Assembly: GCA_041663285.1 (NCBI GenBank)
Contig: JBAZSP010000002.1
Location: forward strand, 1-59,152
Origin: Candidatus Shapirobacteria bacterium
Lineage (GTDB): Bacteria; Patescibacteriota; Microgenomatia; UBA12405
Length of the DNA stretch: 59,152 nucleotides
Direction of reading: 5' to 3'
Shown here: positions 1 through 55,179 of the stretch, one piece after another
Layout of the letters: every line of letters starts with the position of its first letter
How positions within the stretch are numbered: position 1 is the stretch's first letter
Notes under the pieces: model-generated
What the model saw: only the letters and a program-made list of their open reading frames with translations
Database searches by the model: none
What the model was told of the DNA's origin: nothing
Translations under genes and position numbers: made by a program

Positions 1-846
1 ACCCGGCTCGTTGAATCCGCCATGCCCGTCGCACCCCACCCCCCAATCCTGGCCAAAGATTACCATTTTTTCTAATTGCTCGTGAAACTTTTTTATTGCC
101 GTCTCTAGATTCTCCTCGCCAATCGGTGGAGAAACAAATCTGTTCTCGTCCTTAAATAAATATTTCCAGAAATTCCATTGCTCAGCCCGGTAAGTAAACG
201 GCATTTGGCTTATTGGCCCGATTTCTCTTTCTGCCCGGCTGAATTCGGTTTTCGTCCAGCCGTAATCATCCAGCGTCGCCAACTTATTTAGATGACCAAG
301 CGCTGTCTTTAGCTCTTCCGCTTCAATCTCTACCACTTCTAAAAATTGCCCGAATCCTCGGTGATTCTCTAAATTATCCAAGAGGTACGGTAGCAATCCC
401 CACCACATTCTGGCCTCGGTCGTTGTGCCCCCGGTAGCCGTACCCTTATTTAATTCCATTCCGGTTTTGTCCAGGGCTATAAGTAACTTCAAGTTAATGG
501 CCATTGCCACCAGCGTCATATCGCTTTTGTCTTTGGTCATTATTACTTTTCTCCCCGGCAACAATCCAATTTTGGCCGCTTCTGCAAAATTACCGATCTT
601 GCCGGCGTCTCTTGGTACCAAAAATTCTGTGGCTTTAATATTTTTATATTCATTTTTGCTCTCCTTTTTGATTGCAGTTTTTTCTGCCAGCGACTCTAAA
701 TCCAGCACCTCGGCCAATAATTCGTTAATTTCTACCGCCGTATTTCTATAACCCTCGGCCTCTCTTTCTTCTTTAACACTTTGCCAAAATAAATCTTTCC
801 ATTTATTCTGTAGTTCAGTCAAGTTACTGCCGTTTATTTTTGTCAT
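1..846 (-). CDS. Partial CDS (3' end lies beyond the window start): NagB/Pgl-family sugar-phosphate deaminase/isomerase-like protein
   Basis: Missing from the ORF track because it is truncated. My reverse-strand translation from ATG 846-844 stays open to base 1 (282 codons, MTKINGSNLTELQNKW...). It ends ...FGQDWGVGCDGHGGFNEPG, matching the LGxGxDGHxxFNEP signature of the glucosamine-6-P deaminase/6-phosphogluconolactonase family. LATLDDYGW resembles the FNLDEY segment. Confidence 0.6.
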   Translation of the reverse strand, partial: MTKINGSNLTELQNKWKDLFWQSVKEEREAEGYRNTAVEINELLAEVLDLESLAEKTAIKKESKNEYKNIKATEFLVPRDAGKIGNFAEAAKIGLLPGRKVIMTKDKSDMTLVAMAINLKLLIALDKTGMELNKGTATGGTTTEARMWWGLLPYLLDNLENHRGFGQFLEVVEIEAEELKTALGHLNKLATLDDYGWTKTEFSRAEREIGPISQMPFTYRAEQWNFWKYLFKDENRFVSPPIGEENLETAIKKFHEQLEKMVIFGQDWGVGCDGHGGFNEPG

Positions 847-930
847 CATAAGTAATTTATCATACAGAACCACTACGTCGCTTTCAACATCAGACCTATC
901 AAATAATTACCTACTTTATTCGAAACTGCT

Positions 931-1887
931 TTAATTAAGAGATATTTTTAAGCCGCATTTTGGGCATACCCGGGTTCCTTCTTTTAGTTCCTGCCCGCAG
1001 GGGCAAATATATTTCCCGTCAGCCCTCTTCTCAATCCCTAGCCTCACCAACCCGTTGGTTGATTGTAAGGTAAAAATACTCAATCCTCTTCCTTCTCCCA
1101 GCCAGGAGCCTCCATGGGCTCCTGCCGGATTTATCAAATGCCCCATTGACGCCATTAGCATTTCAAATAATCTATTATCACCCCTAGCTGCTACCATCGC
1201 CGTCTCCACTACCCGCATCATTTTCTCCTTATTCTTTACCTCGCCCTGATTTTCAAAAAACTGCCACCAGGCTTCATATTCCGGCATCAGTTCCCGGCAC
1301 TTATCAATCCACTTTTCCAGATCGTCAATTTTGAAGGCTATCGGCTGCTTTCTTACCCCTTCAACTCCATAAGCCGGATCCATAGTTATCCCCCCATTAG
1401 CCATTAATCTTTCTGCCAAATCCACCGACTCAAACCTGTTTAACAATAACGGAATTCCTCTGCCACGTAGTATCTTTGCATCTCCCGCTGTTTCCGCCAG
1501 CAGTATATTAAATCTGCCTTCGTCATACACACCTCCGTTAGCCGTCCCTTCATCTGCCGGGCTTATCCAAAAAATTAGATCATATCCGCCTTCCGCCAGT
1601 TCACACGCATTTCTGGTGGCAATTTCCTCTGCTCTGCGATGTTTGTTGTATTCCGGAAAATCCATTTCCGGCACACCTCCTCTGGATATAATTGGATCGG
1701 CCAAATTAATCCTGTCTAGTACGTCCTTTCCTTTCCCTTCCTCCAACCACACCCCCGCAATTTCCCTAACGGGATTCTTTCTTATATCATAAAACTTGCA
1801 CCCTTCTGCTCTAGTTACCATATACTTGTTGCTCGCAAGACTTAAGGCTCGGGCTATAACCGTAGCGGCACTGCCTAGGGATTCCAC
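931..1887 (-). CDS. Hypothetical protein with a C-terminal CPCG-x9-CPKCG zinc ribbon
   Basis: 318-aa ORF, last in the co-directional nrdR-nrdJ-adenosyltransferase string. Its purine-rich codon usage is typical of minus-strand genes here. No family recognised. Confidence 0.6.
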   Translation of the reverse strand: MESLGSAATVIARALSLASNKYMVTRAEGCKFYDIRKNPVREIAGVWLEEGKGKDVLDRINLADPIISRGGVPEMDFPEYNKHRRAEEIATRNACELAEGGYDLIFWISPADEGTANGGVYDEGRFNILLAETAGDAKILRGRGIPLLLNRFESVDLAERLMANGGITMDPAYGVEGVRKQPIAFKIDDLEKWIDKCRELMPEYEAWWQFFENQGEVKNKEKMMRVVETAMVAARGDNRLFEMLMASMGHLINPAGAHGGSWLGEGRGLSIFTLQSTNGLVRLGIEKRADGKYICPCGQELKEGTRVCPKCGLKISLN

Positions 1888-1904
1888 CTAGTTCCAAAAT
1901 TATT

Positions 1905-2378
1905 CTACTTTACAGCTCTTCCTAAAGTAAATAAGTAACTCGATAATCGATTCATGTATTTCAAAACCACCGGATCTAGTTTTTTTATTTTTGCCAGCGC
2001 CACCATTCTTCTCTCGCACCTTCTGGCTACCGTCCTCGCCCAGTTTAAATCAATATTTAGTTGTCCTCCCGCCTTTAAAAACTTCTCTACCGACTCCATT
2101 TCGCTCTCCGTTCTTTTAATATCCTCCTCCATTTGGCAAAGCGATTCCTCTAACGTTATCTCTTTTCCATAACCAGCCAAGTATGCCGATAAGTAATATA
2201 GATCAGAATTAATCCGATCCGAGACTTTCGTCAACTGATTTTTATGCATTACCAAGGCAATAACAGCCATCAATTCATCCAGCTCTCCTATTGCCTCAAT
2301 CAGCTGACTATCTTTCCCTACCCTCTTTCCGGTAACACCCGTCACCCCCTTGTCTCCCGACTTTGTCGTTATGGGCAT
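1905..2378 (-). CDS. PduO-type ATP:cob(I)alamin adenosyltransferase
   Basis: 157 aa. The N-terminus MPITTKSGDKGVTGVTGKRVGKDSQLIEAIGELDEL matches the conserved TKTGDKGxT...RVxKD...EAxGxxDEL start of the PduO/MMAB family. Confidence 0.8.
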   Translation of the reverse strand: MPITTKSGDKGVTGVTGKRVGKDSQLIEAIGELDELMAVIALVMHKNQLTKVSDRINSDLYYLSAYLAGYGKEITLEESLCQMEEDIKRTESEMESVEKFLKAGGQLNIDLNWARTVARRCERRMVALAKIKKLDPVVLKYMNRLSSYLFTLGRAVK

Positions 2379-2388
2379 CTGTTGCTAT

Positions 2389-2416
2389 TCGTAAATCTTA
2401 AATCGTAAATCTTAAA
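2389..2416. repeat. Perfect tandem duplication of the 14-nt unit TCGTAAATCTTAAA
   Basis: Read directly: 2389-2402 equals 2403-2416, with a third partial unit (TCG). It lies in the nrdJ/adenosyltransferase spacer and is related to the TCGTAAT repeats inside leuS. Confidence 0.85.
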
Positions 2417-2424
2417 TCGATTTT

Positions 2425-4956
2425 TTAGCTGCACTTCGAGTATCCGCAATACGCGTTGGAACATTTAAAACAGCCTTCTTCAGCATAAAGCGGTGATCCG
2501 CAATCCGGGCACGACGAAAACTTGCTCTCTTCGGCCGCCTGTTTTGTCCTCACCTCTGCCAACACTTGCTGATCAACCTTAAGGCCTTCAACTTTTGGCA
2601 CAACTAATTCCACCTTTTCTTCAGCAAACAAATTTAATTGCTCACCTCGCGAAATCTCCAACAGCGACTTTCCAACTGCATCAAACATACTCAATACCGC
2701 CCCATTCCCCAGCCCTACTCTTTGGCCACAGGAAATTCCTACCAGCTCTTCAGCCACTTCCTCCAGGCTAGCCCCATATTTTAAGCACAACGACGCCAGC
2801 CGTCCCGTAACCTCCGACGATCCGGCCAAATAGCCTCCGGATTTCCCCAAGGTTACAAATACTTCTACTGGCCCATCCCCCTCCTCAAAAAATACCGATG
2901 TGTACACTTTTCCCACATCACAAGTTTTCCGCAGCCTTACTCCCCTGGCGGCTTCCGGCGTTTTTCTTTTTACCGGTCCGGTCCGGATTATTATTTTTTC
3001 GTCTTTCCCGTTACCCTCTTTCTTTTCCTTAGTTACCTGTATTATCTCTTTCTCCCTCGAGCCAGTTCGATATATTGTTATACCTTTAGTATTTAGGTTA
3101 TAGGCTAATCGGTACGCCGATCTGACATCATCAACCGTAGCCTCTTTATGGAAATTTATCGTTTTGCTTACTGCATTATCAGTATATTTTTGAAAAGCCA
3201 CCTGGATTTTTATGTGCCACTCCGGCTCAATCTCCAAAGCCGTTCTAAAAACCTCTTTGACTTCGTCTGGTATCTCGTCTATTCCGGTTAATTTGCCGCC
3301 ATTTTTTATGATTTTATCAATCAGCTCCGGCCTGTCCAATCCGGATTCCTTTAATGAATTCATAAAAATCGGATTAAGCATCTGCAACACCTTCCCCTCA
3401 ACCGTATTTTTTTGGTACCCCAGCGAAAATGCCGGCTCAATTCCCGACGAGGCGTCGGCCACCATGCTGATTGTTCCGGTCGGGGCAATAGTCGTCAAGG
3501 CCATATTCCGTGGCCGATAGTCTGTTCCTTTATATACACTTATCTCCCAGGCGGGGAAAACCCCCCGAACTTTACCCAGTTCCTGGCTCGCCTCTCTAGC
3601 TTTTTCTGTAACAAAACGCATCACCTTCTCTGCCCACTCCACTCCTTCGGTCGAATCGTATCTTACCCCCAACTTAAACAACATGTCGGCAAACCCCATC
3701 ACTCCCAGACCGATTCTTCTGGTCTTGTCCACCATTTCTCTGATTTTAGCCACCGGAAATTCGTTAACCTCGACTACGTTATCCAAAAACCTGACGGCCA
3801 TTTTTACCACTCTCCCAAGCTCCTCCCAATCCAAACCTTTTCCGTCGCGCCCAGAAACCTCCGGCAAAACCATCCTGGCTAAATTAATGCTACCCAAATT
3901 ACAGGCGTCATAAGGCAATAGTGGCTGTTCGCCACATGGATTTGTCGATTCTATTTTGCCCATCGCCGGCACCGGATTCGAGGTTGATTCGTTCATCCGG
4001 TCAATAAAAACTAATCCCGGGTCACCGTACTGCCATGCCAGCCTGGTTATCAAATTAAAAACCTTATAGGCGTTCAACCGCATCTTTGTTTCTCCATTCC
4101 GGGGATTTATTAGTTCATAGCCTTCACCCTCCCGGGAAGCTTTCGCCCATTCATATAATTTACTTATCCCCTTCTCAATTTCCCGCAATCGAAGGTCTAC
4201 ATCCCGCAACCCCTCTGCCCTCCGTATATCTTCCACCACCTCTTCAGGAATAGAGTCATCGTCGGTAAATTTTTTATCCGTCTCCACCTTCTCCATAAAA
4301 GCGTTAGTGACTGCCAGCGATATGTTGAAATTGGTCAGGCTGTATTCATCCAGTTTTGCCACCGCAAATCTCAATACATCCGGATGATCAATCGAAAGCA
4401 TTCCCATATTCGCCCCCCGCCGCACTCCTCCCTGCTTAATTTGGGAAGTAACATCGTTATAAGCTTGCATAAATGACACTGGCCCTACCGTTGTTCCACC
4501 GCTGCTTTTAATGTAGTCACCGCACGGCCGTAACCGGGTAAACGAAAAACCAGTCCCGCCGCCACTTTTGTGGATTATTGCCATGTTCGACATTGTTTCC
4601 AAAATCGACTCCATCGAATCTTCTATGGGCAGCACAAAACAGGCCGAGAGCTGCTGGTGGGTCTTCCCTGCATTCACCAGGCAGGGTGTATTGGGCAAAA
4701 ATTTCTGCTCTGCCATCAAGCCATAAAAATCCAGCGCCAGATTTTCGACCCCCTCTCCTCCCACCCCAAATTTCCTCTCGGCTCCGGCAATGCTTACTGC
4801 CACCCGCCAAAAAATATCTTCTGCTTTTTCCAGGGCTTTTCCTTTCTCATCTTTTAAAGCATATCTGGTTTCGGCTATATACCTGGCATTATCCGATAAC
4901 TTCGGCTCTGCCAGCTTCCCCCGAGCCGTGCTTTGACGGTTATTTAGTTCGTCCAT
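2425..4956 (-). CDS. nrdJ: Adenosylcobalamin-dependent (class II) ribonucleotide reductase
   Basis: 843 aa with class II RNR motifs (LSACFVLP, NPCGEQPL, VSKTINF) and a C-terminal CPDCG...CFKC...C zinc-ribbon tail. Confidence 0.9.
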   Translation of the reverse strand: MDELNNRQSTARGKLAEPKLSDNARYIAETRYALKDEKGKALEKAEDIFWRVAVSIAGAERKFGVGGEGVENLALDFYGLMAEQKFLPNTPCLVNAGKTHQQLSACFVLPIEDSMESILETMSNMAIIHKSGGGTGFSFTRLRPCGDYIKSSGGTTVGPVSFMQAYNDVTSQIKQGGVRRGANMGMLSIDHPDVLRFAVAKLDEYSLTNFNISLAVTNAFMEKVETDKKFTDDDSIPEEVVEDIRRAEGLRDVDLRLREIEKGISKLYEWAKASREGEGYELINPRNGETKMRLNAYKVFNLITRLAWQYGDPGLVFIDRMNESTSNPVPAMGKIESTNPCGEQPLLPYDACNLGSINLARMVLPEVSGRDGKGLDWEELGRVVKMAVRFLDNVVEVNEFPVAKIREMVDKTRRIGLGVMGFADMLFKLGVRYDSTEGVEWAEKVMRFVTEKAREASQELGKVRGVFPAWEISVYKGTDYRPRNMALTTIAPTGTISMVADASSGIEPAFSLGYQKNTVEGKVLQMLNPIFMNSLKESGLDRPELIDKIIKNGGKLTGIDEIPDEVKEVFRTALEIEPEWHIKIQVAFQKYTDNAVSKTINFHKEATVDDVRSAYRLAYNLNTKGITIYRTGSREKEIIQVTKEKKEGNGKDEKIIIRTGPVKRKTPEAARGVRLRKTCDVGKVYTSVFFEEGDGPVEVFVTLGKSGGYLAGSSEVTGRLASLCLKYGASLEEVAEELVGISCGQRVGLGNGAVLSMFDAVGKSLLEISRGEQLNLFAEEKVELVVPKVEGLKVDQQVLAEVRTKQAAEESKFSSCPDCGSPLYAEEGCFKCSNAYCGYSKCS

Positions 4957-5428
4957 TTTTTACTTTGATAATTTTTAACCTTGGATTTGGGGGAAAATCC
5001 TTAATAAGCTTTTCAAAATCTTCAATATTTTTTATGCCCAAATAAATCGTGGCAAACCGGATATAAGCCACCGGGTCAACATTTTTCAGTTTCTCCATCA
5101 CCATTTTACCGATCTCGTGGCTTGGGATTTCCACACTCGGCCAATTTAGTAGCTTCATTTCCATTTCGTCAATTAACTTCGTCCTTTCTTCTCTGGCTAG
5201 TTTCCAGCAGGCCTTTTCAAAGCACCTTTCCAGCTTCTCCCGGCTATAATCTTCCACCCGCCCGTCCTTTTTGACTACCCTAAGCTCAATGTTGCCTACC
5301 TTCTCATAAGTAGTAAATCTTTTTTGGCACTTTAAACACTCCCTTCGTCTCCGGGTAGCCTTGCCCTCCTGGGCATCCCGGCTCTCCAAAACATTTGATT
5401 CATCAAAACCACAGTACGGACAAAGCAT
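4940..5428 (-). CDS. nrdR: Transcriptional repressor NrdR
   Basis: MLCPYCGFDESNVLESRD...RRRRECLKCQKRFTTYE is the NrdR zinc ribbon, followed by an ATP-cone. Overlaps the nrdJ start by 17 nt. Confidence 0.9.
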   Translation of the reverse strand: MLCPYCGFDESNVLESRDAQEGKATRRRRECLKCQKRFTTYEKVGNIELRVVKKDGRVEDYSREKLERCFEKACWKLAREERTKLIDEMEMKLLNWPSVEIPSHEIGKMVMEKLKNVDPVAYIRFATIYLGIKNIEDFEKLIKDFPPNPRLKIIKVKNGRTK

Positions 5429-45984: not shown

Positions 45985-46091
45985 TTTTTATCATTAAATA
46001 TAATGTTTATTATTATTCCTATCTTTTGGTACTAATCTATATGCAAATCTATAATATTTTTTAAACTTTTAACCTAGTTATTTTCTTTGTG

Positions 46092-47348
46092 ACCGACCGT
46101 TTGTGTTGCTCTTTGTTTGTTTTGTTTTTCTCCTTTCTTTGCCGCTTCGCGGCCCCCAGGTCGCCAGGCTTGAAGCCCGGCGACCTGTTTTGTTCGCTCT
46201 GGGGGGCCGCTTCGGCCAAAGTGTAGCTCAGTGCTACCGCTGGGTCGCCGCCATGCGCGCCTTGACTTGCTCGATCTTCTCCTCGCGGGTGAAAGCGGCA
46301 GCGCTCTGGGCCTGGAGCTGATGGGGCCGCCCCTTCTGATAAAACGCTACGTTCACAGCGCGACCTTGGGACCAATCCCACAAAAAGACCTGGTCGCCAT
46401 CCAGCAGCCCGTCCTGGGTGACAAGCACCACGTTGGATACCAACTCAGCCCACCTGACATAGAAGACATAATCCGGGTAGACACTGACCGTGTCGGAGAA
46501 GCTCTCCGTCGGAACGATTTCGAGAATCTCGGGCAAAAAATCGTCCGTCATGTGCGGAGATACGATCTCCAAGTAATTCAGCCTCTCCTTGCCGCTCCAC
46601 ACGGTTTGCCACAAATTCTCTCCGGGCGCCTTCGTAACAAGAGGTTGGACCCAGGTCCCCTCGGGGATGCTCGAGCCAAAATCGGCCGGCTTGTCCCACA
46701 GCGTAAACTCGCTCTCAAAGACCGTGTTGCTGGCAATCCGCAAGCTCTCGACCTCGCCCTGATACTCGAAAATCGCGTTGCTGACCCCGTTGAGCCACAC
46801 ACCACCCTCGTCGCTCGCACCCTCGCCATCGCCTTCGACTATGATATAGGCTTTGGTAACCCAACAGGCCGCACCCTTCAAGGCAACATCGAGCGAGACG
46901 TTCGGGCAGGTGTTCGCCACCATGATGCGCGATCCCTGTCGGCTGATCTCGATACACTCGGCGCCGTAAATCACCGGCGTCGCCGTAGGCTCGGGCGTGG
47001 GCTTCGTCTCCGCCACGATGGGCATGTGGACCTTATAGGTGCCCCCTGCCAACGCCGGCACACAACCCGTAGCCATCAAAATCAGGCCGACCAGCCCTAG
47101 GCCGATCAGTACGCGGATAAGACGCTTCGCTTTCATCGTATTCATCGTAACCTCCATTGTAAGTTGAGAACCACCCGCAGTTTCTCCTCCGAATCTCTCG
47201 CGGCGAGGACAAGATGTCCTCCTTAATCCCCTTCCTTAAGGGATTTTGAAATTTCCGCACGTTCACTTCGAACATCAAGTCCCCTTGATACCCCAAGTGA
47301 ACGTACGGAATAAAAACAAACTTTTAAAGCAAAATTCAAACGGTCGGT
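46092..47348. mobile_element. 1.26-kb GC-rich, skew-free insertion bounded by inverted repeats, carrying one lipoprotein gene and no recognisable transposase/integrase
   Basis: ACCGACCGTTTG (46092-46103) is the exact reverse complement of 47337-47348. The similarity extends imperfectly for ~45 nt (46092-46135 versus 47305-47348). The interior is visibly much more GC-rich than the flanks. Confidence 0.45.
46234..47145 (-). CDS. Lipoprotein of unknown function, foreign codon usage
   Basis: MNTMKAKRLIRVLIGLGLVGLILMATGC is a signal peptide plus lipobox Cys. GGAGG lies 4-5 nt upstream of ATG 47145. G/C-ending codons dominate, unlike every other gene in the window. Confidence 0.7.
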   Translation of the reverse strand: MNTMKAKRLIRVLIGLGLVGLILMATGCVPALAGGTYKVHMPIVAETKPTPEPTATPVIYGAECIEISRQGSRIMVANTCPNVSLDVALKGAACWVTKAYIIVEGDGEGASDEGGVWLNGVSNAIFEYQGEVESLRIASNTVFESEFTLWDKPADFGSSIPEGTWVQPLVTKAPGENLWQTVWSGKERLNYLEIVSPHMTDDFLPEILEIVPTESFSDTVSVYPDYVFYVRWAELVSNVVLVTQDGLLDGDQVFLWDWSQGRAVNVAFYQKGRPHQLQAQSAAAFTREEKIEQVKARMAATQR

Positions 47349-47374
47349 TGTTAAAGTTCTCCTTGCAAAAACTT

Positions 47375-47396
47375 CCAAAGCCGCTTTGGCTTTTTT
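47375..47396. terminator. Hairpin CCAAAG-CCG-CTTTGG followed by C and a T6 run, just outside the right inverted repeat
   Basis: Read directly. An A-rich run on the other side makes it potentially bidirectional. Confidence 0.35.
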
Positions 47397-47730
47397 AGCT
47401 TTTCCAAAGTGACCAGATTATATATTAATTACACACATAAGTCAATATTATAAGTCTTTCTTTGAGCCTGATTCAAAGCTAATTCGTAGCTAATTATTCT
47501 ATTCTGGTTCCAATAATATCCTTTCCTTTTTATCAACCCTGGCTACTCTCCTCTTATACTATATATAAACCATCAACCAGGGCATTTACTCATAAATCAA
47601 TTCTAATTCTTACTTTTCTCCTATATTCCTGTGTTAAGGCTTATTTGACCCGCCTTAACACTCCCGTTCCCTTTCTGCTTGATACCTTTAGCTATACTTT
47701 TCTGTGCTATTTAGGATACCTTTGTGGCCT

Positions 47731-48141
47731 TTACCCCAACCTAAGAATATCCAATATCTCTTCGGCCGACACTAAACTAATCTTCCCTACCCGTTTCAAA
47801 GGCAAAATATGTTTCTTGTCTCCGCTTACCAAATAATCTGCTCTTGCCTCCAAGGCACACTCCACGATTCTATTATCTGCTACTAACTGTTTAATCTTTT
47901 TAAATTCCTTTTTTGGCTCGACTAGCTCAAAATCCTCCAAAAGCAGCCTTTCCACCTTATCCAAAGCTCCTGAACTAAAATCGAACTTCCTTCCCAATAC
48001 CGCTCGAACTTCATAAATAATAAATTTTGAAATGTATCCCCTTAATCCTCCAAGCACCACCTTGTCCATTATTTCTCTTGGCTTTCCGCCAAAAACTATC
48101 GCTGATACAATTATATTTGTATCAAGAACAACTTTTGTCAT
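47731..48141 (-). CDS. PIN-domain toxin (TIGR00305-like)
   Basis: MTKVVLDTNIIVSAIVFGG... start and C-terminal YLVSGDKKHILPL, typical of this PIN subfamily. Confidence 0.75.
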   Translation of the reverse strand: MTKVVLDTNIIVSAIVFGGKPREIMDKVVLGGLRGYISKFIIYEVRAVLGRKFDFSSGALDKVERLLLEDFELVEPKKEFKKIKQLVADNRIVECALEARADYLVSGDKKHILPLKRVGKISLVSAEEILDILRLG

Positions 48142-48144
48142 TAG

Positions 48145-48378
48145 TTAGCTTCGTAAACTGTCTATAGTATCTTCCAAATCATCCTTATTGATTTTAGCCT
48201 TTTTTCCTTTCTTTAAACCATAGGCATAAATACTTTCCCAATCTTGTTTTTTGGCTAAATAACCTCTGACAGCTTCTTGGACTAAGCCGCTGATCGTCCT
48301 GGCTTCAGCTTTCGCCCTTTTCCCCACAGCCTTATATAGAGGGCTGGGAATAGAAATATTTATCGTCTTGCACTCCAT
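48145..48378 (-). CDS. Ribbon-helix-helix (CopG-like) antitoxin
   Basis: KTINISIPSPLYKAVGKRAKAEARTISGLVQEAVRGYL fits a strand-helix-helix pattern. It sits 3 nt upstream of the PIN gene. Confidence 0.65.
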   Translation of the reverse strand: MECKTINISIPSPLYKAVGKRAKAEARTISGLVQEAVRGYLAKKQDWESIYAYGLKKGKKAKINKDDLEDTIDSLRS

Positions 48379-48415
48379 AACCTATTATACAATATTTATA
48401 CAGTTTTTGTATGAC

Positions 48416-51385
48416 TTATCTTACTACCAAATTTATCATTTTCCCCGGCACATAGATTTCTTTTACCACCTGCTTCCCCACCAGCCACTGCTTAATTTTT
48501 TCCAACCCTTTTGCCTCTTCGATTATCTCTTTCCCATTCGTAATTCGTAATTGATTAATTGATAATTGATCTCTAACTTTCCCATTCACGGCCACCGGAA
48601 TCGTTATTTCTTCTTCTACCAGCATAGCCTTCTCTGCCACCGGCCAATCGGCAATATGAACCGATATCGAATCTTTCTCTTCCCTAACCTTACTCCAGAG
48701 TTCCTCCGCCGTATACGGCGCCAGCGGGGCTATTAGCTTGATTAATGTTTTTATATCATCCTTTCGTAATTCGTAATTCGTAATTCGTAATTGATTAATT
48801 GCTTCCATCATCTTGGCAATCGCCGTGTTGTACCCAAACTCTTCAATATCCCTTGTCACCCCATCAATCAATTTATTAATGATTGCCTTGATCTGTATAT
48901 CTTCTTTGCCTCCTTCTTTCGTCATCGCGATCCGCCAGCTGGCGGAGTGGCGATCTCCATCCTTAGATTGCTTCGTCTCTTCGTTCCTCGCAATGACGTC
49001 TAAGATAAATTGATTAAATCTATCCAAGAATCGCTTTACCCCCATCAGTGTTTTTTCGTTCCAAGCCATTGTTCCCGTAAACGGCCCCATAAACATCAAA
49101 TACATTCTGGCCACATCTACTCCGTATTTATCTGCCACTTGATCTGGAACAATTACATTACCTCTCGATTTACTCATCCTTTGGTTATCCGGGCCCAAAA
49201 TTACTCCGTGCGACATCCGCCGGCTGTACGGCTCCGGAGTTGGTACGCAGCCCAAATCATATAAGAATTGGTAAATGAATCTCGAGTACAAAAGATGCAG
49301 TGTGTTATGTTCGTCTCCCCCAATATAGACATCCACCGGCATCCAATACTTCAAAATATCTTCATTAAGAGTGAAAATATTTTGAGAATCTCTAATTTCC
49401 AAATCCGAATCTCTAAACGAATTTGATTTATTTAAATTTTTATCATTTGGATTTTGGACTTGTTTGGAATTTGAAAATTGGAATTTGGAACTTCCGAGGT
49501 TACATAAGTAACCGAGGTAGTACCAATCCGATCCTGCCCAATTAGGCATAGTATCCGTCTCTCTTCGGGCCCCCCCGCCACAAACCGGGCATTTGGCTTT
49601 CACCCAATCTGCCATCATCGACAGTGGTGACTCCCCGGTATCGGTTGGTTCGTAATGCTCGACTTCCGGAAGCACAATAGGCAGCTCCTCCTCCGGCACC
49701 GGGTACCACCCCGGATTTTTCTTTGGCACTTCAATGTCAATATTGTTCTCTTTGGCATATGTTTTAATTCTTTCATTTTGGTCATTTAGATTTTGGTTAT
49801 TGGTTATTGTTTGGTTATTAGAATTTGGAACTTGGTTATTCCCATGATTTTCTGCGCAATTTTTACAGAAAATCATTGGTATTGGTTCTCCCCAATAATG
49901 TTGCCTACTAAATATCCAATCCCGCAAATGATAATTAGCCGTCGGCTCCCCTATTCCTTCTTCTTTTACCCATTTTATGGCAACTTTTATTGCCTCGCTT
50001 GGCACTAACCCATTCCACCTTGGCGAGTTGATTGCTATCACTCCCGTAAGATCAGTGCAAGCTTCATCTTGTTAATTCCAATTACCGGCTTCGCCCGCCG
50101 TAGCTTTAGCGTAGGTGGGCACTATTGGCAATCCAAACTTTTTGGCAAAAGCAAAATCCCGCTCATCATGAGCCGGGACTGCCATAATAGCTCCAGTGCC
50201 GTAAGAGGCCAAGACAAAGTCGGATATCCAAATCGGAATTTCTTTTCCGTTTACCGGGTTAATCGCATATAATCCCGAAAACACCCCCGTCTTTTCCTTA
50301 GCCAACTCCGTCCTTTCCATATCACTTTTCTTTCTGGCATTAGCCACATATTTTTTTATTTCTTCAATTTGGGCATTAATAATTTGAACATTGGAATTTG
50401 TTTGGGATTTGTCAGCCATAAGCTGATCCGCCTTTGGTGGAGAATTTGGGATTTGCTTATTCATGATTTGGTTTACCAAATCATGTTCCGGTGCTATCAC
50501 CATAAATGTCGCCCCGTATAACGTATCCGGCCTGGTAGTAAAAACTTCAATATTAAAATCTGGTGAGTGTCCAATTTTTCGCGCGCAATCATCCGAATCC
50601 GACTTCATGTCCGATAAGAGCGTGCCTGCCCGCCTCTGGCGGGAGCACGATAAAATTGTGGCCGAACCAGATTCCAATTTGAATTTAATTCTGGCTCCCT
50701 CCGACTTCCCTATCCAATTAATCTGCGCCTGCTTGACCTTTTCCACAAAATTAGTCTGTTCTAAACCCTCAAGCAGTCTATCAGCATAGTTTGTTATCTT
50801 TACTACCCATTGTGATATATTCCTTCTTGACACCTCAGCCCCGCACCGTTCGCATTTTCCGTTCACTACTTCTTCGTTAGCCAGTCCTATCTTGCAACTT
50901 GGGCACCAATTAATCGGCATTTCCTGCTTGTAGGCCAAGCCTTTTTTGAATAATTGTATAAAAATCCACTGAGTCCAGCGGTAATAGTCTGGATCAGTCG
51001 TGTTGACCTCTCTTGACCAATCAAACGAAAACGCCAGCCGCTTCATCTGCTCCCTAAACATATCGGTGTTCTGCTTAGTTACCTCCTGCGGTGGCTTTTT
51101 CATCTTTATCGCATAGTTCTCAGTCGGCAGTCCAAAGGCATCCCAACCCATTGGGTAAAGCACGTTAAACCCTCTCATCCGCCAATATCGGGCGTAAACG
51201 TCCCCTCCAGTAAAAGTAAACGCATGGCCAATATGCAATCCGCTGCCGCTTGGATATGGAAACTCTACTAAAATATACTTCTTCGGTTTATTCGAGTAAT
51301 CTTTAGCCGCCGTAGCTTCAGCGTAGGCGGCCCAAAACTTCTGCCAGTTAGATTCAATCTCTTTGAATTTATTTTCTTTTTCCAT
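48416..51385 (-). CDS. leuS: Leucyl-tRNA synthetase, single reading frame interrupted by one TAA (50074-50072) and carrying many repeat-derived insertions
   Basis: The N-part has HIGH (GLHIGHAF), the Zn-binding CPSC...CERCG and the CP1 editing domain (TTRPDTLYGATF). The C-part has LRDWIFSRQHYWGEPIP and KMSKS (RMSKSRGN). Both track ORFs (51385 and 50041) are in the same frame. Confidence 0.9.
48778..48801. repeat. 24-nt block TCGTAATTCGTAATTGATTAATTG inside leuS, also present at 48538-48561
   Basis: Exact duplicate read directly. At 48764-48791 the TCGTAAT unit is repeated four times. Both copies encode INQLRITN. Confidence 0.85.
48965..48998 (-). repeat. REP-like element inside leuS with the same termini as 30847-30887
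   Basis: The reverse complement reads CGTCATTGCGAGGAACGAAGAGACGAAGCAATCT. Next to it is the hairpin TCCGCC-AGCT-GGCGGA (48931-48946). Confidence 0.7.
50094..50119. repeat. REP-like element CCCGCCGTAGCTTTAGCGTAGGTGGG inside leuS, 20 nt from the in-frame stop
   Basis: Related copies lie at 51306-51331 (in leuS) and 52141-52165 (intergenic). It encodes PTYAKATAG. Confidence 0.75.
51306..51331. repeat. REP-like element GCCGCCGTAGCTTCAGCGTAGGCGGC inside the leuS 5' end
   Basis: Encodes AAYAEATAA between the conserved WQKFW and KPKKYIL segments. Confidence 0.75.
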
Positions 51386-51400
51386 AGCTTATTTTAAACT

Positions 51401-51428
51401 AAAAAAACCCGCCTCTTGGGCGGGGTTT
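51401..51428 (-). terminator. Intrinsic terminator 15 nt upstream of the leuS start codon
   Basis: Minus strand: CCCGCC (51424-51419), CAAGA, GGCGGG (51413-51408), then T7 (51407-51401). Confidence 0.6.
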
Positions 51429-51452
51429 CTTTTATCCTTTTACCCCTCCCTC

Positions 51453-51488
51453 TCAGGCAACCAAAAGAAGAAGAGTTAAGGTAAACAT
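51453..51488 (-). CDS. Candidate Leu-rich leader peptide MFTLTLLLLVA
   Basis: Hand-translated: ATG TTT ACC TTA ACT CTT CTT CTT TTG GTT GCC TGA. A TAAAAT -10 (51499-51494) ends 5 nt upstream. Confidence 0.5.
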   Translation of the reverse strand: MFTLTLLLLVA

Positions 51489-51635
51489 AAGCCATTTTAC
51501 CACATCGCCCTTTTTGTGTTACAAATATATTAGAATGCTCTTACAATTTATTTTTGGTCTCATTAGTCTCTCCATCATCCCATTTTTGACTTTGTCCCTC
51601 CCCCTACCAGTCTTCGTCGTTTAGACTCCTTTACT

Positions 51636-52070
51636 TTGAGCCACGAACTTAAAAGCTGTCACCATTCCTGGTTTGGTTGTGTACTTCTTCTTGTTGGCGG
51701 TATTTCTACTAGTTTTTTCTTCTTTTTTATGCCAGTCAATACCTATCCTGACGAGTTTCATTTTATAATTATGCTTTTCTTTTCATTTATCATTTTAACA
51801 GCCGCTACCTTATATTATCCCGATTCTTGGTTTCATTTTCTATTTGCTGGAATTACTGCTCTGGCTCTTTACCTGCTAGCAATCTTTGTCAGCCTTGTTA
51901 TTTTAATATTTATCCCTCTGTCCGGGTCAGTTGGACTGTTGATTCTTTTTTTGGGTTTAATTGCTTTCTTTTCTTACCAGTTACTCCGCCGCTTTTCGGT
52001 TACCGGCGTCACCGAATGGATATTTATTTTCACTCTTTCAGTCTGGTCGGTACTTTATTTTATTTTCTAA
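51636..52070 (+). CDS. Hypothetical polytopic membrane protein (144 aa)
   Basis: Four hydrophobic segments, TTG start in the track. No family recognised. Confidence 0.5.
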   Translation: MSHELKSCHHSWFGCVLLLVGGISTSFFFFFMPVNTYPDEFHFIIMLFFSFIILTAATLYYPDSWFHFLFAGITALALYLLAIFVSLVILIFIPLSGSVGLLILFLGLIAFFSYQLLRRFSVTGVTEWIFIFTLSVWSVLYFIF

Positions 52071-52140
52071 ACCCCTTAGGTAACTCAAACCGCCTAGTCT
52101 ACCAAGCTACCTAATCCTAATGTCCTCTCCTTACTCTTGT

Positions 52141-52200
52141 CCACCGAAGCTTTAGCGTAGGTAGGATCACCTGTCCCGATCGAAGCATCGGGAAAGGAGG
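52141..52200. repeat. Composite REP-like hairpins (CCACCGAAGCTTTAGCGTAGGTAGG, then GTCCCGATCGAAGCATCGGGA)
   Basis: The first part is related to the leuS copies. The second has a CCCGAT/ATCGGG stem like the hairpin inside murB (36631-36646). Confidence 0.65.
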
Positions 52201-52215
52201 GGCTAGGGGTGGATT

Positions 52216-52312
52216 TCTTAATTAAAAATTAGAATTTAGAAATTTTGAATTTGTTTAGAGTTTAGATATTAGGATTTAGAATTTAGAACTTAGGATTTAG
52301 AGCTTAAATGCT
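52216..52312. repeat. AT-rich TTAGAAT/TTAGGAT heptad array
   Basis: ttagaatttagaaattttgaatttgtttagagtttagatattaggatttagaatttagaacttaggatttagagc. Confidence 0.65.
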
Positions 52313-52337
52313 ATTCATGAATCCTGAATCAAAGTCG

Positions 52338-54413
52338 TTATTCGTACCTTAACGCATTCAAAGCCGAAATCGCTCTGGCCCTTTTTGACGGATACCAGCC
52401 CGTAAATATCCCCACCACAAAAGATATCATCATAATAAAAATTACAAAAAATATCGGTAAATAAGTCAAATCTAAAGTAGCTTGCCCTTTCATCACCGAA
52501 ACTAAGCTTAACCCAATCGATACCAATTTGCTTCCCGCATATCCCCCAATCACCCCCAAAGCGCCTCCACCAACCCCCATCATCATTGATTCTGCCAAAA
52601 ATAATTCCCTCACCTCGTCCGATTGCATCCCCATGGCTTTCATTACCCCCACCTCTCTCGTCCTCTCCAATAATGACACCGTCATCGTATTAAACATCCC
52701 CAGTGAGGCCACCGCCAGGGCAATTGTTCCCAATAGCCCCAAAACCAGCCGTAAAGTTTTGAAAATCTTTTCGATTCCCACTACCGTATCCACCGTACTC
52801 GATGTTTTATAACCCATCATCTCCGTTAACCTCCTGGCTTCAGCCAAATCAGCTTCTTTATCCACCAGGATTTTTAGCTGGGAATAATTACTAACTCCTA
52901 ATTTTCTGGCATCACTTAAATGAAAATAAAAATAATTACTGCTGTCATCGTCGATTACTCCCTTTATTAAATATTCAGTTTCTTCTGACTGGGCCCGCCC
53001 TTGCTTGTTAGCTAGTAACGAATCCGGCACAATAAATACTACCGAAAACATTTTTTCGCCCACCTCTTCCAGTTTTAAACCTAACATCTCCATCATTCCG
53101 CTACTAATGTATGCCTCTTTTACCGCTTCCTCCTGAAATTTTATGGTATTAACTTTATTCTTATCATCCTCTTTTTGATTTAATTCTACCCACTCAACTC
53201 CGTTTTTATCGATTGTCGTTGTCTTGGCAAACATCAAGGCCGAGGCCGAGGCCACCTTGGCATCTTCAACCAATGTGGTGTTAATTCCCAACACTTGGTC
53301 GCTCCTTTCTTTTATTCCCTCCAAATACTCAGTTAAGCTTTCTGCCTTAAACAATTTTCGGCTGTCCCCGTCAATTATCAGATCGTCCAGTCTCAAGTAC
53401 CCAACTGCCCATTTTTGCTTGCCTATACCATCTACTTCCGGAGCCGCCCCATCTTCAGTCATTCTCCACAAAGGAACTTTAGCCTTCATCCACTTGGAAT
53501 ATTCCTGATCCAAATATACATCTTTGCCGTCTACTTGCTCCTGACTGTCGTATTTTTCCCCCCAAACTTCCTCTCCGATATAACCGTTTTCCCTCCGGAT
53601 CACTACTCCCACCGGCTTTCCTTGGTTTTTACCCTCGCTGTATATTATCGCGTTACTACCTTGTTTTACATTAAACTTAACTACTCCCTTATCTACTTTT
53701 TCTCCATTCACTGCAAAGCTCACTTCTTCAGTCTCCCCCAAAATTTTCTCCGAGCCAGGAATCATCGCTTCCTCATCCATATTTTTGAACTTCTCCTTGG
53801 TCAAATAACCCACCCCTGTAATCTGCAAATATCTGGCATCAACTCCAAACGACATTACGTCCAGCACCGAATTATTAAATTTTACTTTAGCCACCATCGA
53901 CACAATCGGCAGAACCTCCTTCACTCCATTAAAAGTTTGGATTTTCCCAATTGCCACTTCGTTCATTTTGCTTAATGATGCCTTTACCAAACTAACATCG
54001 GCCATCTTTAATTCATTCAACTTAGCTACCCGGGATATCACCAGTTTTTCCAGCCCGTATCCCACTGACACCAAAAACACAATTGCTCCTACCCCTAATG
54101 CCACTCCGCCTATAGTCACTATCGACCTGGCACTTCTCGACCTCATGTTTTCCAAAGCCAACTCAACTAAATAAGCCCGAGAGATTTGGCCACCCCGATC
54201 GTAGTCCATCCAGAATATCATTTTGTCGACCAGCTTCATCAAAAGCTGCCCTCCCAACAGTCTAAAACCCTTGCCGGCAATCTTTAGTTCGATTAAAAAA
54301 TTCAGTATCTGACGGAAGATAATCAGGCACAACACAAAAATAAAAATAATATTGAAATATATTAAACATCCCCAATTTTTAACTGTTTCCACCATGCGAT
54401 TAATTTTTCTCAT
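52338..54413 (-). CDS. MacB/FtsX-type ABC transporter permease with a large extracytoplasmic domain
   Basis: 691 aa. A TM helix is followed by a ~430-aa extracytoplasmic region, then a C-terminal FtsX-like three-TM bundle (VGVMKAMGMQSDEVRELFLAES...). Confidence 0.75.
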   Translation of the reverse strand: MRKINRMVETVKNWGCLIYFNIIFIFVLCLIIFRQILNFLIELKIAGKGFRLLGGQLLMKLVDKMIFWMDYDRGGQISRAYLVELALENMRSRSARSIVTIGGVALGVGAIVFLVSVGYGLEKLVISRVAKLNELKMADVSLVKASLSKMNEVAIGKIQTFNGVKEVLPIVSMVAKVKFNNSVLDVMSFGVDARYLQITGVGYLTKEKFKNMDEEAMIPGSEKILGETEEVSFAVNGEKVDKGVVKFNVKQGSNAIIYSEGKNQGKPVGVVIRRENGYIGEEVWGEKYDSQEQVDGKDVYLDQEYSKWMKAKVPLWRMTEDGAAPEVDGIGKQKWAVGYLRLDDLIIDGDSRKLFKAESLTEYLEGIKERSDQVLGINTTLVEDAKVASASALMFAKTTTIDKNGVEWVELNQKEDDKNKVNTIKFQEEAVKEAYISSGMMEMLGLKLEEVGEKMFSVVFIVPDSLLANKQGRAQSEETEYLIKGVIDDDSSNYFYFHLSDARKLGVSNYSQLKILVDKEADLAEARRLTEMMGYKTSSTVDTVVGIEKIFKTLRLVLGLLGTIALAVASLGMFNTMTVSLLERTREVGVMKAMGMQSDEVRELFLAESMMMGVGGGALGVIGGYAGSKLVSIGLSLVSVMKGQATLDLTYLPIFFVIFIMMISFVVGIFTGWYPSKRARAISALNALRYE

Positions 54414-55179
54414 GAGCTTTTTTTTGAATTGTCATTTTAGTTCTTGACCCTTTCTTGCCGACCAAATTTCCTGACACTTTTTTTACCTCTTTTCCGGTGA
54501 TTTCTTCCACCAACTCGCCGTCAATTATATGAACCAATTTTGTCGCATACCGTAAATACTCCAAATCATGGGTTACCATCAGAATCGTTTTACCTTGATC
54601 CTGATTAAGCTTGACTAATAACTGCATCAATTGATCTCCTGATACCGTATCCAGATTCCCGGTCGGCTCATCAGCTACCAACATTATCGGATCGATAGTC
54701 AGAGCCCTGGCCAATCCCACCCTTTGCTGTTGGCCTGAAGACAGCTCTGACGGATGCTGGTCAGCCAGCTTTTCAAGGCCCAATTCTCTCAACACCTGAA
54801 GGGATCTTTGGTTGGCCATCTCCTTGTTGATACCTTTAAGTCGATTAGGAAAACTGACGTTCTTTAACACGTTTAAAGATTTTATCCATATTGATTGCTG
54901 AAATACCACCCCCACCCTTTCCTTGCGAAACCTGACAATTTGATCCTCATTCATCGAATATAAATCCCTACCATCAAATATCACTCTCCCCGACGTTGGC
55001 GCCTCCATTCCCAAAACTGTATGGAGCAGTGTTGATTTACCACAGCCCGACGGTCCAAATACTATTACAAATTCTCCGATTTCGATTTTTAAATTAAAAT
55101 TTTTCAGCACCGGCACCAGCTGACCCCCTACTTTAAAACTCTTATTTAAATCGTTAACTTCCAGTATTGTCTTGGTCAC
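54400..55179 (-). CDS. ABC transporter ATP-binding protein (MacB/LolD-like)
   Basis: Walker A GPSGCGKST, signature LSSGQQQR, Walker B MLVADEPT. Confidence 0.9.
   Translation of the reverse strand: MTKTILEVNDLNKSFKVGGQLVPVLKNFNLKIEIGEFVIVFGPSGCGKSTLLHTVLGMEAPTSGRVIFDGRDLYSMNEDQIVRFRKERVGVVFQQSIWIKSLNVLKNVSFPNRLKGINKEMANQRSLQVLRELGLEKLADQHPSELSSGQQQRVGLARALTIDPIMLVADEPTGNLDTVSGDQLMQLLVKLNQDQGKTILMVTHDLEYLRYATKLVHIIDGELVEEITGKEVKKVSGNLVGKKGSRTKMTIQKKAHEKN

Follow-up and report, generated by a model that had tools for sequence, protein, structure and literature searches.

A single in-frame stop codon in the leuS gene of a Candidatus Shapirobacteria genome, read as a tyrosine codon in a near-identical groundwater population

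Single-chain bacterial leucyl-tRNA synthetases (LeuRS; family TIGR00396) carry the HIGH and KMSKS motifs and, for CP1 editing, the domain PF13603; solved examples are those of Thermus thermophilus (1h3n/2v0c) and E. coli (4aq7). A class I synthetase may tolerate a cut in or near CP1, with its pieces still able to assemble: Shiba and Schimmel reportedly obtained laboratory complementation in 1992 with fragments of isoleucyl-tRNA synthetase (IleRS) cut in CP1, and Li et al. are said to have engineered a cut at E292-A293 of E. coli LeuRS in 1999, with impaired activity. In nature, a bacterial LeuRS likewise made of two polypeptides is the alpha-beta enzyme of Aquifex aeolicus, which is split in the leucine-specific domain according to PMC3643597. 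It is the sole natural precedent named in an earlier note on the DNA considered here, and the available part of PMC4138327 makes no mention of a cleaved LeuRS. This DNA, referred to below as the window, is a stretch of 59,152 nt from Candidatus Shapirobacteria bacterium (assembly GCA_041663285.1, contig JBAZSP010000002.1, positions 1 to 59,152), whose leuS gene on the minus strand is interrupted by one in-frame TAA. We consider it very probable that the working leuS of the species is uninterrupted and that the TAA reflects either an error of a low-depth consensus or a nonsense allele of low frequency.

The break separates two entries of the list of open reading frames (ORFs), namely 51385..50072 (ATG, 437 aa) and 50041..48416 (GTG, 541 aa). 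Both are in the same frame and, as the earlier note had stated, they are parted solely by the TAA at 50074-50072, which reads ...GGT AAT TGG AAT TAA CAA GAT GAA... on the minus strand; the read-through peptide quoted in that note also matches the translation of the frame. The 5' part of leuS (50072..51385, minus strand) consists of 437 sense codons, ends in the in-frame TAA and contains the HIGH motif, the zinc-binding insert and the CP1 editing domain up to about three quarters of its length. The 3' part (48416..50071, minus strand) comprises 551 stop-free codons and the terminal stop, and encodes the end of CP1, the KMSKS-containing second half of the catalytic core, and the anticodon-binding and C-terminal domains. 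Searched with TIGR00396 (leuS_bact), the 5' ORF scores 484.1 bits and the 541-aa 3' ORF 370.9 bits, each below the curated cut-off of 548.4, and the in-frame join of both pieces reaches 857.7 bits. The class I motifs are kept in the translation (HIGH in the N-terminal part, MSKS in the C-terminal part as ...RMSKSRGN...), and no further stop or frameshift is present, i.e. the frame departs from the uninterrupted one of bacterial LeuRS by a single defect in 990 codons, the TAA at codon 438. As HIGH and KMSKS are retained and nothing else in the gene is broken, the break would be either very recent or artefactual.

The stretch is present in two groundwater metagenome runs from two studies, X1 and X2, which contain 0.94 and 0.90 of its sampled words, respectively; two other runs, X3 and X4, have next to nothing of the stretch, only short unlike pieces, and no RNA run was listed as containing it. 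The base comparison was made with assembled Logan contigs. In X1, positions 48965-51086 are covered by one contig (record 5; 2122 nt, depth 4.54), which differs from the window at exactly three bases (~99.9% identical). The first, 49567 G>T, is synonymous (CGA>AGA); the second, 49572 C>T, changes GGG to GAG (G605E); and the third, 50072 T>G, converts the minus-strand TAA to TAC, which encodes Tyr. One of only three differences in 2122 bases hits the stop codon itself. Because a near-identical population reads Tyr at the position of the stop, the TAA is better understood as a sequencing error or a rare variant than as the sign of a new two-piece enzyme. The earlier note had offered three explanations, and the first of these, a base-call or population variant, is supported by the TAC in the X1 contig together with the aromatic column that is described below. 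It had also named the finding that would speak against a genuine break, a sense codon such as TAC in near-identical sequence, and the X1 contig contains exactly this.

Relatives were examined by searching 41 genomes (the window's own, G000, and 40 relatives) for leuS at a match threshold of E <= 1e-30, which gave 36 genomes with a match. The window's gene was then aligned with those of 24 relatives, omitting the broken, cut or contig-end copies L010, L026 and L035-L038. At the column of codon 438 (50072..50074, minus strand), a stop is absent from all 24 aligned relatives; the residues are F (9), Y (5), I (3), V (2) and one each of L, D, K, Q and a gap, so that 14/24 are aromatic. In the 120 best database homologues the same column is aromatic in 105/120 (F 102, Y 3), and a single change at the third position turns TAA into a Tyr codon. 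The comparison with sibling genomes proposed in the earlier note has thereby been carried out, with the stop absent from the site in 24/24 relatives and TAC in the X1 contig. The best 120 matches to the region around the stop are all proteins of 604-1027 aa, and the same-genus relative G001 has an open leuS frame of 827 codons. The closest named homologues in protein searches come from Candidatus Shapirobacteria and Patescibacteria. Identities in these searches reached at most 69% (978 aa) and 67% (462 aa), and they yielded no full-length LeuRS that is near-identical and no fragment of 437 aa. Other assemblies hold many LeuRS entries of 350-520 aa labelled 'partial', among which contig-end fragments and real splits are indistinguishable without genomic context. 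A search of metagenome contigs, in which 583 relatives were confirmed and 80 kept, and from which records of the window's own genome were possibly excluded, yielded no near-identical leuS locus, the best matches reaching 71% (109 residues) and 85% (82 residues).

Stops inside the leuS match were flagged in two of the 41 genomes searched, G000 and G032, and single nonsense breaks in leuS are accordingly seen in 2/36 genomes with a match. The copy in G032 (L010, on G032:C52; same order, 86% complete, 90 contigs) has its in-frame TAA at another site than the window stop, directly behind the zinc-binding CxxC motif, at a position occupied by Lys in a relative, and a second TAA occurs before the N-terminus. 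Three further apparent leuS 'splits' (L119 in G025, L120 in G031 and L121 in G038) were rejected as precedents, since runs of about 100 N shift the frame in these copies; the N runs are masked or scaffold gaps and lie at or near the loop positions of repeat-derived inserts in relatives.

Taken together, the gene would be an ordinary leuS of the single-chain bacterial kind, making one polypeptide, in a groundwater bacterium with a small genome; its codon 438 would have gone from TAC (Tyr) to TAA by a plus-strand G to T change at 50072 that is private to the assembly. G to T on the plus strand is a type of change that arises from oxidative damage in Illumina libraries. The depth of the organism is low (4.5-5.7 in X1 and 4.5-8.1 in X2, for long, exact pieces), which makes consensus errors plausible. 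The TAA would then have one of two origins, with roughly even chances: an error in a consensus built at low depth, or a nonsense allele, rare and probably deleterious, that the assembler picked by chance. We infer that the source population, too, works with TAC. In X2 no contig extends across 50072, and a 533-nt contig (contig 13) with zero differences begins exactly at 50073; adjacent X2 contigs overlap by 30 nt. As a branch at position p = 50072 in a k=31 assembly graph would give a contig start at p+1, X2 may hold two alleles or an error branch at this base, although this is a hint and no more. Several points weigh against an error or a rare allele. The depth of the X1 contig is below 5, and a difference in one such contig may itself be an error. 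The window differs from both X1 and X2 at 49572, so that neither run is clearly its source and a third strain might have the TAA fixed. No further near-identical copy was found that could vote, the best being 85% for the locus and 69% and 67% for the proteins. Finally, the genome looks clean apart from leuS: none of the 16 other junctions at in-frame stops that were tested across the genome (see below) proved to be a broken domain, and a generally error-ridden consensus is thus not shown.

If the TAA were real, the organism might still possess a functional LeuRS from another source. The genome (1,090,707 bases in 42 contigs, 96.13% complete, 0.22% contaminated) has no second leuS above the cut-off in the TIGR00396 profile search, and the earlier note likewise saw none. 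Three other loci in the genome score at most 53.2 bits against this profile and are taken to be paralogous class I synthetases. At 96.13% completeness in 42 contigs there is room for a further copy in the unassembled ~4% of the genome, from which leucylation could proceed while the window's leuS decayed as a recently inactivated pseudogene; alternatively, leucylation could be provided by a host, small-genome bacteria of this group being thought to be host-dependent. We regard such a pseudogene as very unlikely, given that no second leuS was found in the genome, that the defect is a lone one in 990 codons and that the near-identical population has a sense codon; in addition, bacteria are not known to import a synthetase from a host.

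The absence of a second copy also bears on another reading, in which the TAA is real and dominant in the strain and LeuRS consists of two non-covalent fragments, the N-terminal one ending at residue 437 and the C-terminal one restarting at the GTG at 50041 or at that of 50005-50003. With a single-copy leuS in a 96% complete genome and four tRNA-Leu genes the enzyme is needed, both halves of the gene are otherwise intact, in-frame GTGs occur 11 and 23 codons past the stop, and the X2 contig break at 50073 hints at coexisting alleles. We nevertheless hold such a two-fragment enzyme to be improbable. The near-identical population has TAC, no relative shares the stop, and the cut falls inside the CP1 fold, at a site which the solved editing domains 4k47, 3o0a and 3pz0 span. 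The restart region likewise gives no sign of adaptation to a split. The first in-frame start past the stop, the GTG at codon 449 (50039..50041, minus strand), is directly abutted by GGGAG with no spacer, and no properly spaced Shine-Dalgarno sequence was found for it. The second in-frame GTG (50005-50003) has AGGTGG 9 nt upstream, and the first in-frame ATG lies 66 codons downstream, beyond conserved core motifs. Judged from its letters, nothing in this region looks adapted for a second cistron.

The position of the stop within the protein was defined with a 301-residue segment centred on it, in which the stop was read as X. The Pfam domain PF13603 (CP1 editing) matches residues 47-185 of this segment (E 3.7e-44; profile positions 49-183 of 185), and the match runs across the stop at segment residue 151. 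Aligned to T. thermophilus LeuRS, the segment covers residues 277-443 and places the stop at about residue 371. The isolated editing-domain crystal constructs 4k47, 3o0a and 3pz0 align across the stop site, as do the chains 3o0a, 3pz0 and 3pz5, which carry the name 'Leucyl-tRNA synthetase subunit alpha' of Aquifex; as these chains span the site, the whole editing domain belongs to the alpha subunit in Aquifex. The break in the window would, by the PF13603 match, cut a folded CP1 domain about 35 profile positions before the domain end. The earlier note had located the stop between a HIGH/CP1 half and a KMSKS half, a placement which the PF13603 match and the T. thermophilus alignment correct, the stop being inside the CP1 editing domain. 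Its second explanation, a two-subunit LeuRS, is not supported: the break is inside CP1, 0/24 relatives share it, and the GTG at 50041 is without a spaced Shine-Dalgarno sequence.

A remaining possibility is that the TAA is read through or recoded as an amino acid, giving a full-length LeuRS. The frame stays open for 551 codons past the stop, and leuS of the relative G032 is likewise interrupted by an in-frame TAA, at a different site. A read-through signal was not seen, no search aimed at one having been made. To place the leuS stop among those of the whole genome, we listed all in-frame stops with at least 150 stop-free codons on both sides, a scan that is blind to frameshifts and to breaks near gene ends. 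Among the 53 junctions obtained, TAA is the commonest stop (37/53). In 36 of the 53 an ATG occurs within 9 codons past the stop, the pattern of neighbouring genes, and these were set aside; the other 17, including leuS, were scanned against Pfam with the stop as X. A domain crosses the stop only in leuS, whereas the 16 other junctions have domains ending before or starting after the stop (12) or no Pfam match (4). No suppressor tRNA (anticodon tta, cta or tca) was found by aragorn among the 44 tRNAs, four of which are tRNA-Leu. With no stop-reading tRNA, TAA as the usual terminator and leuS as the lone case of a crossed domain, the genome points to neither recoding nor suppression, and to no general decay of the consensus. 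Read-through or recoding is consequently extremely unlikely, and the third explanation of the earlier note has no support, given the 0/44 suppressor tRNAs and the 16 tested junctions that no domain crosses. tRNA-Asn and the transfer-messenger RNA (tmRNA) were not found by aragorn in the 42 contigs, which may reflect the absent ~4% of the genome.

A GC-rich imperfect palindrome of 24 nt (CCGCC...GGNGG type) is dispersed in the genome, with 19 copies at up to 5 mismatches compared to 0-1 for 20 shuffled 24-mers. Three copies are in the window and the others on further contigs of the genome. Sixteen of the 19 look intergenic, with stop-free stretches of only 29-143 codons around them; two are in frame in leuS, and one is in a long frame on contig C31. 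On the coding strand, the first leuS copy (50095..50118) precedes the stop by 20 nt; the second (51307..51330, 2 mismatches) is in frame near the N-terminus. A third copy in the vicinity (52141..52164, 3 mismatches) lies in the 951-nt gap upstream of leuS and is one of the 16. The earlier note had recognized a REP-like insertion (50094-50119) in frame near the stop and had proposed that it created the break. The repeat itself is borne out by its 19 copies, but the proposed role in the break is not: the copy at 50095-50118 adds only about 3 residues in comparison with most relatives, and X1 has the same repeat beside an intact TAC, as it differs from the window by three single bases and none of the insertions or deletions listed lies in the repeat. 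In-frame palindromic elements are known from Rickettsia, and the dispersed 24-nt palindrome recalls them.

Besides the repeat, the LeuRS of the window has six lineage-specific in-frame inserts of 6-47 residues, and with 989 residues it is longer than the 827-codon frame in the same-genus relative. Insert positions are 48923-48979, 49385-49480, 49715-49855, 50387-50446 and 50573-50668. Several of the inserts are of low complexity or made of short DNA repeats, and relatives carry different inserts at the same loop positions. The summed contig depth, about 5-30 across most of leuS, rises to 211-5050 at 48670-48803 and to 34-664 at 48938-49071. These high-depth bins contain a heptamer repeat (an ATTCGTA run, 48762-48808) and another short motif, which many organisms in the samples seem to have in common; peptides like these repeats occur at the same place in the LeuRS of some relatives.

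In the surroundings of leuS, the 951-nt upstream gap (51386-52337) is without a convincing minus-strand ORF. It contains a hydrophobic 144-aa ORF on the plus strand (51636-52070), which may be a composition shadow. An Rfam search over 46000-55000 returned one sub-threshold match only (P9, 25.2 bits vs 43, E 0.05) and no leader RNA upstream of leuS. Over the whole window (1-59152), the plus-strand GC skew is between -0.15 and -0.44 in every 2-kb window, with no change of sign in 59 kb.

We suggest annotating leuS as a single gene in which the base at 50072 is suspect. More generally, caution is called for when a low-depth metagenome-assembled genome shows a lone in-frame stop in an essential gene, and near-identical populations should be checked first. 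A true split would add a second and independent case of a natural LeuRS in two pieces, with the cut in a folded domain, and would bear on the modularity of class I synthetases; the evidence points the other way, and a very young natural split of this essential enzyme, unlike Aquifex in its site, is improbable.

Compared with the known systems, the window gene agrees best with single-chain bacterial LeuRS, as represented by TIGR00396 and the solved enzymes of T. thermophilus and E. coli. It gives a full-length match in frame and shares with them HIGH, KMSKS and the PF13603 CP1 domain; it differs by the TAA at codon 438 and by its six lineage-specific in-frame inserts. In the A. aeolicus enzyme the split falls in the leucine-specific domain and the alpha subunit has the whole of CP1, whereas the stop in the window lies inside CP1. 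Nor is the break conserved in relatives or populations as would be expected of a split of the Aquifex type, since it is present in none of the 24 relatives and the near-identical X1 population is without it, reading TAC, and the 120 homologues are long proteins. The class I synthetases cut in CP1 in the laboratory were engineered constructs; any production and assembly of two fragments from the gene considered here would be hypothetical.

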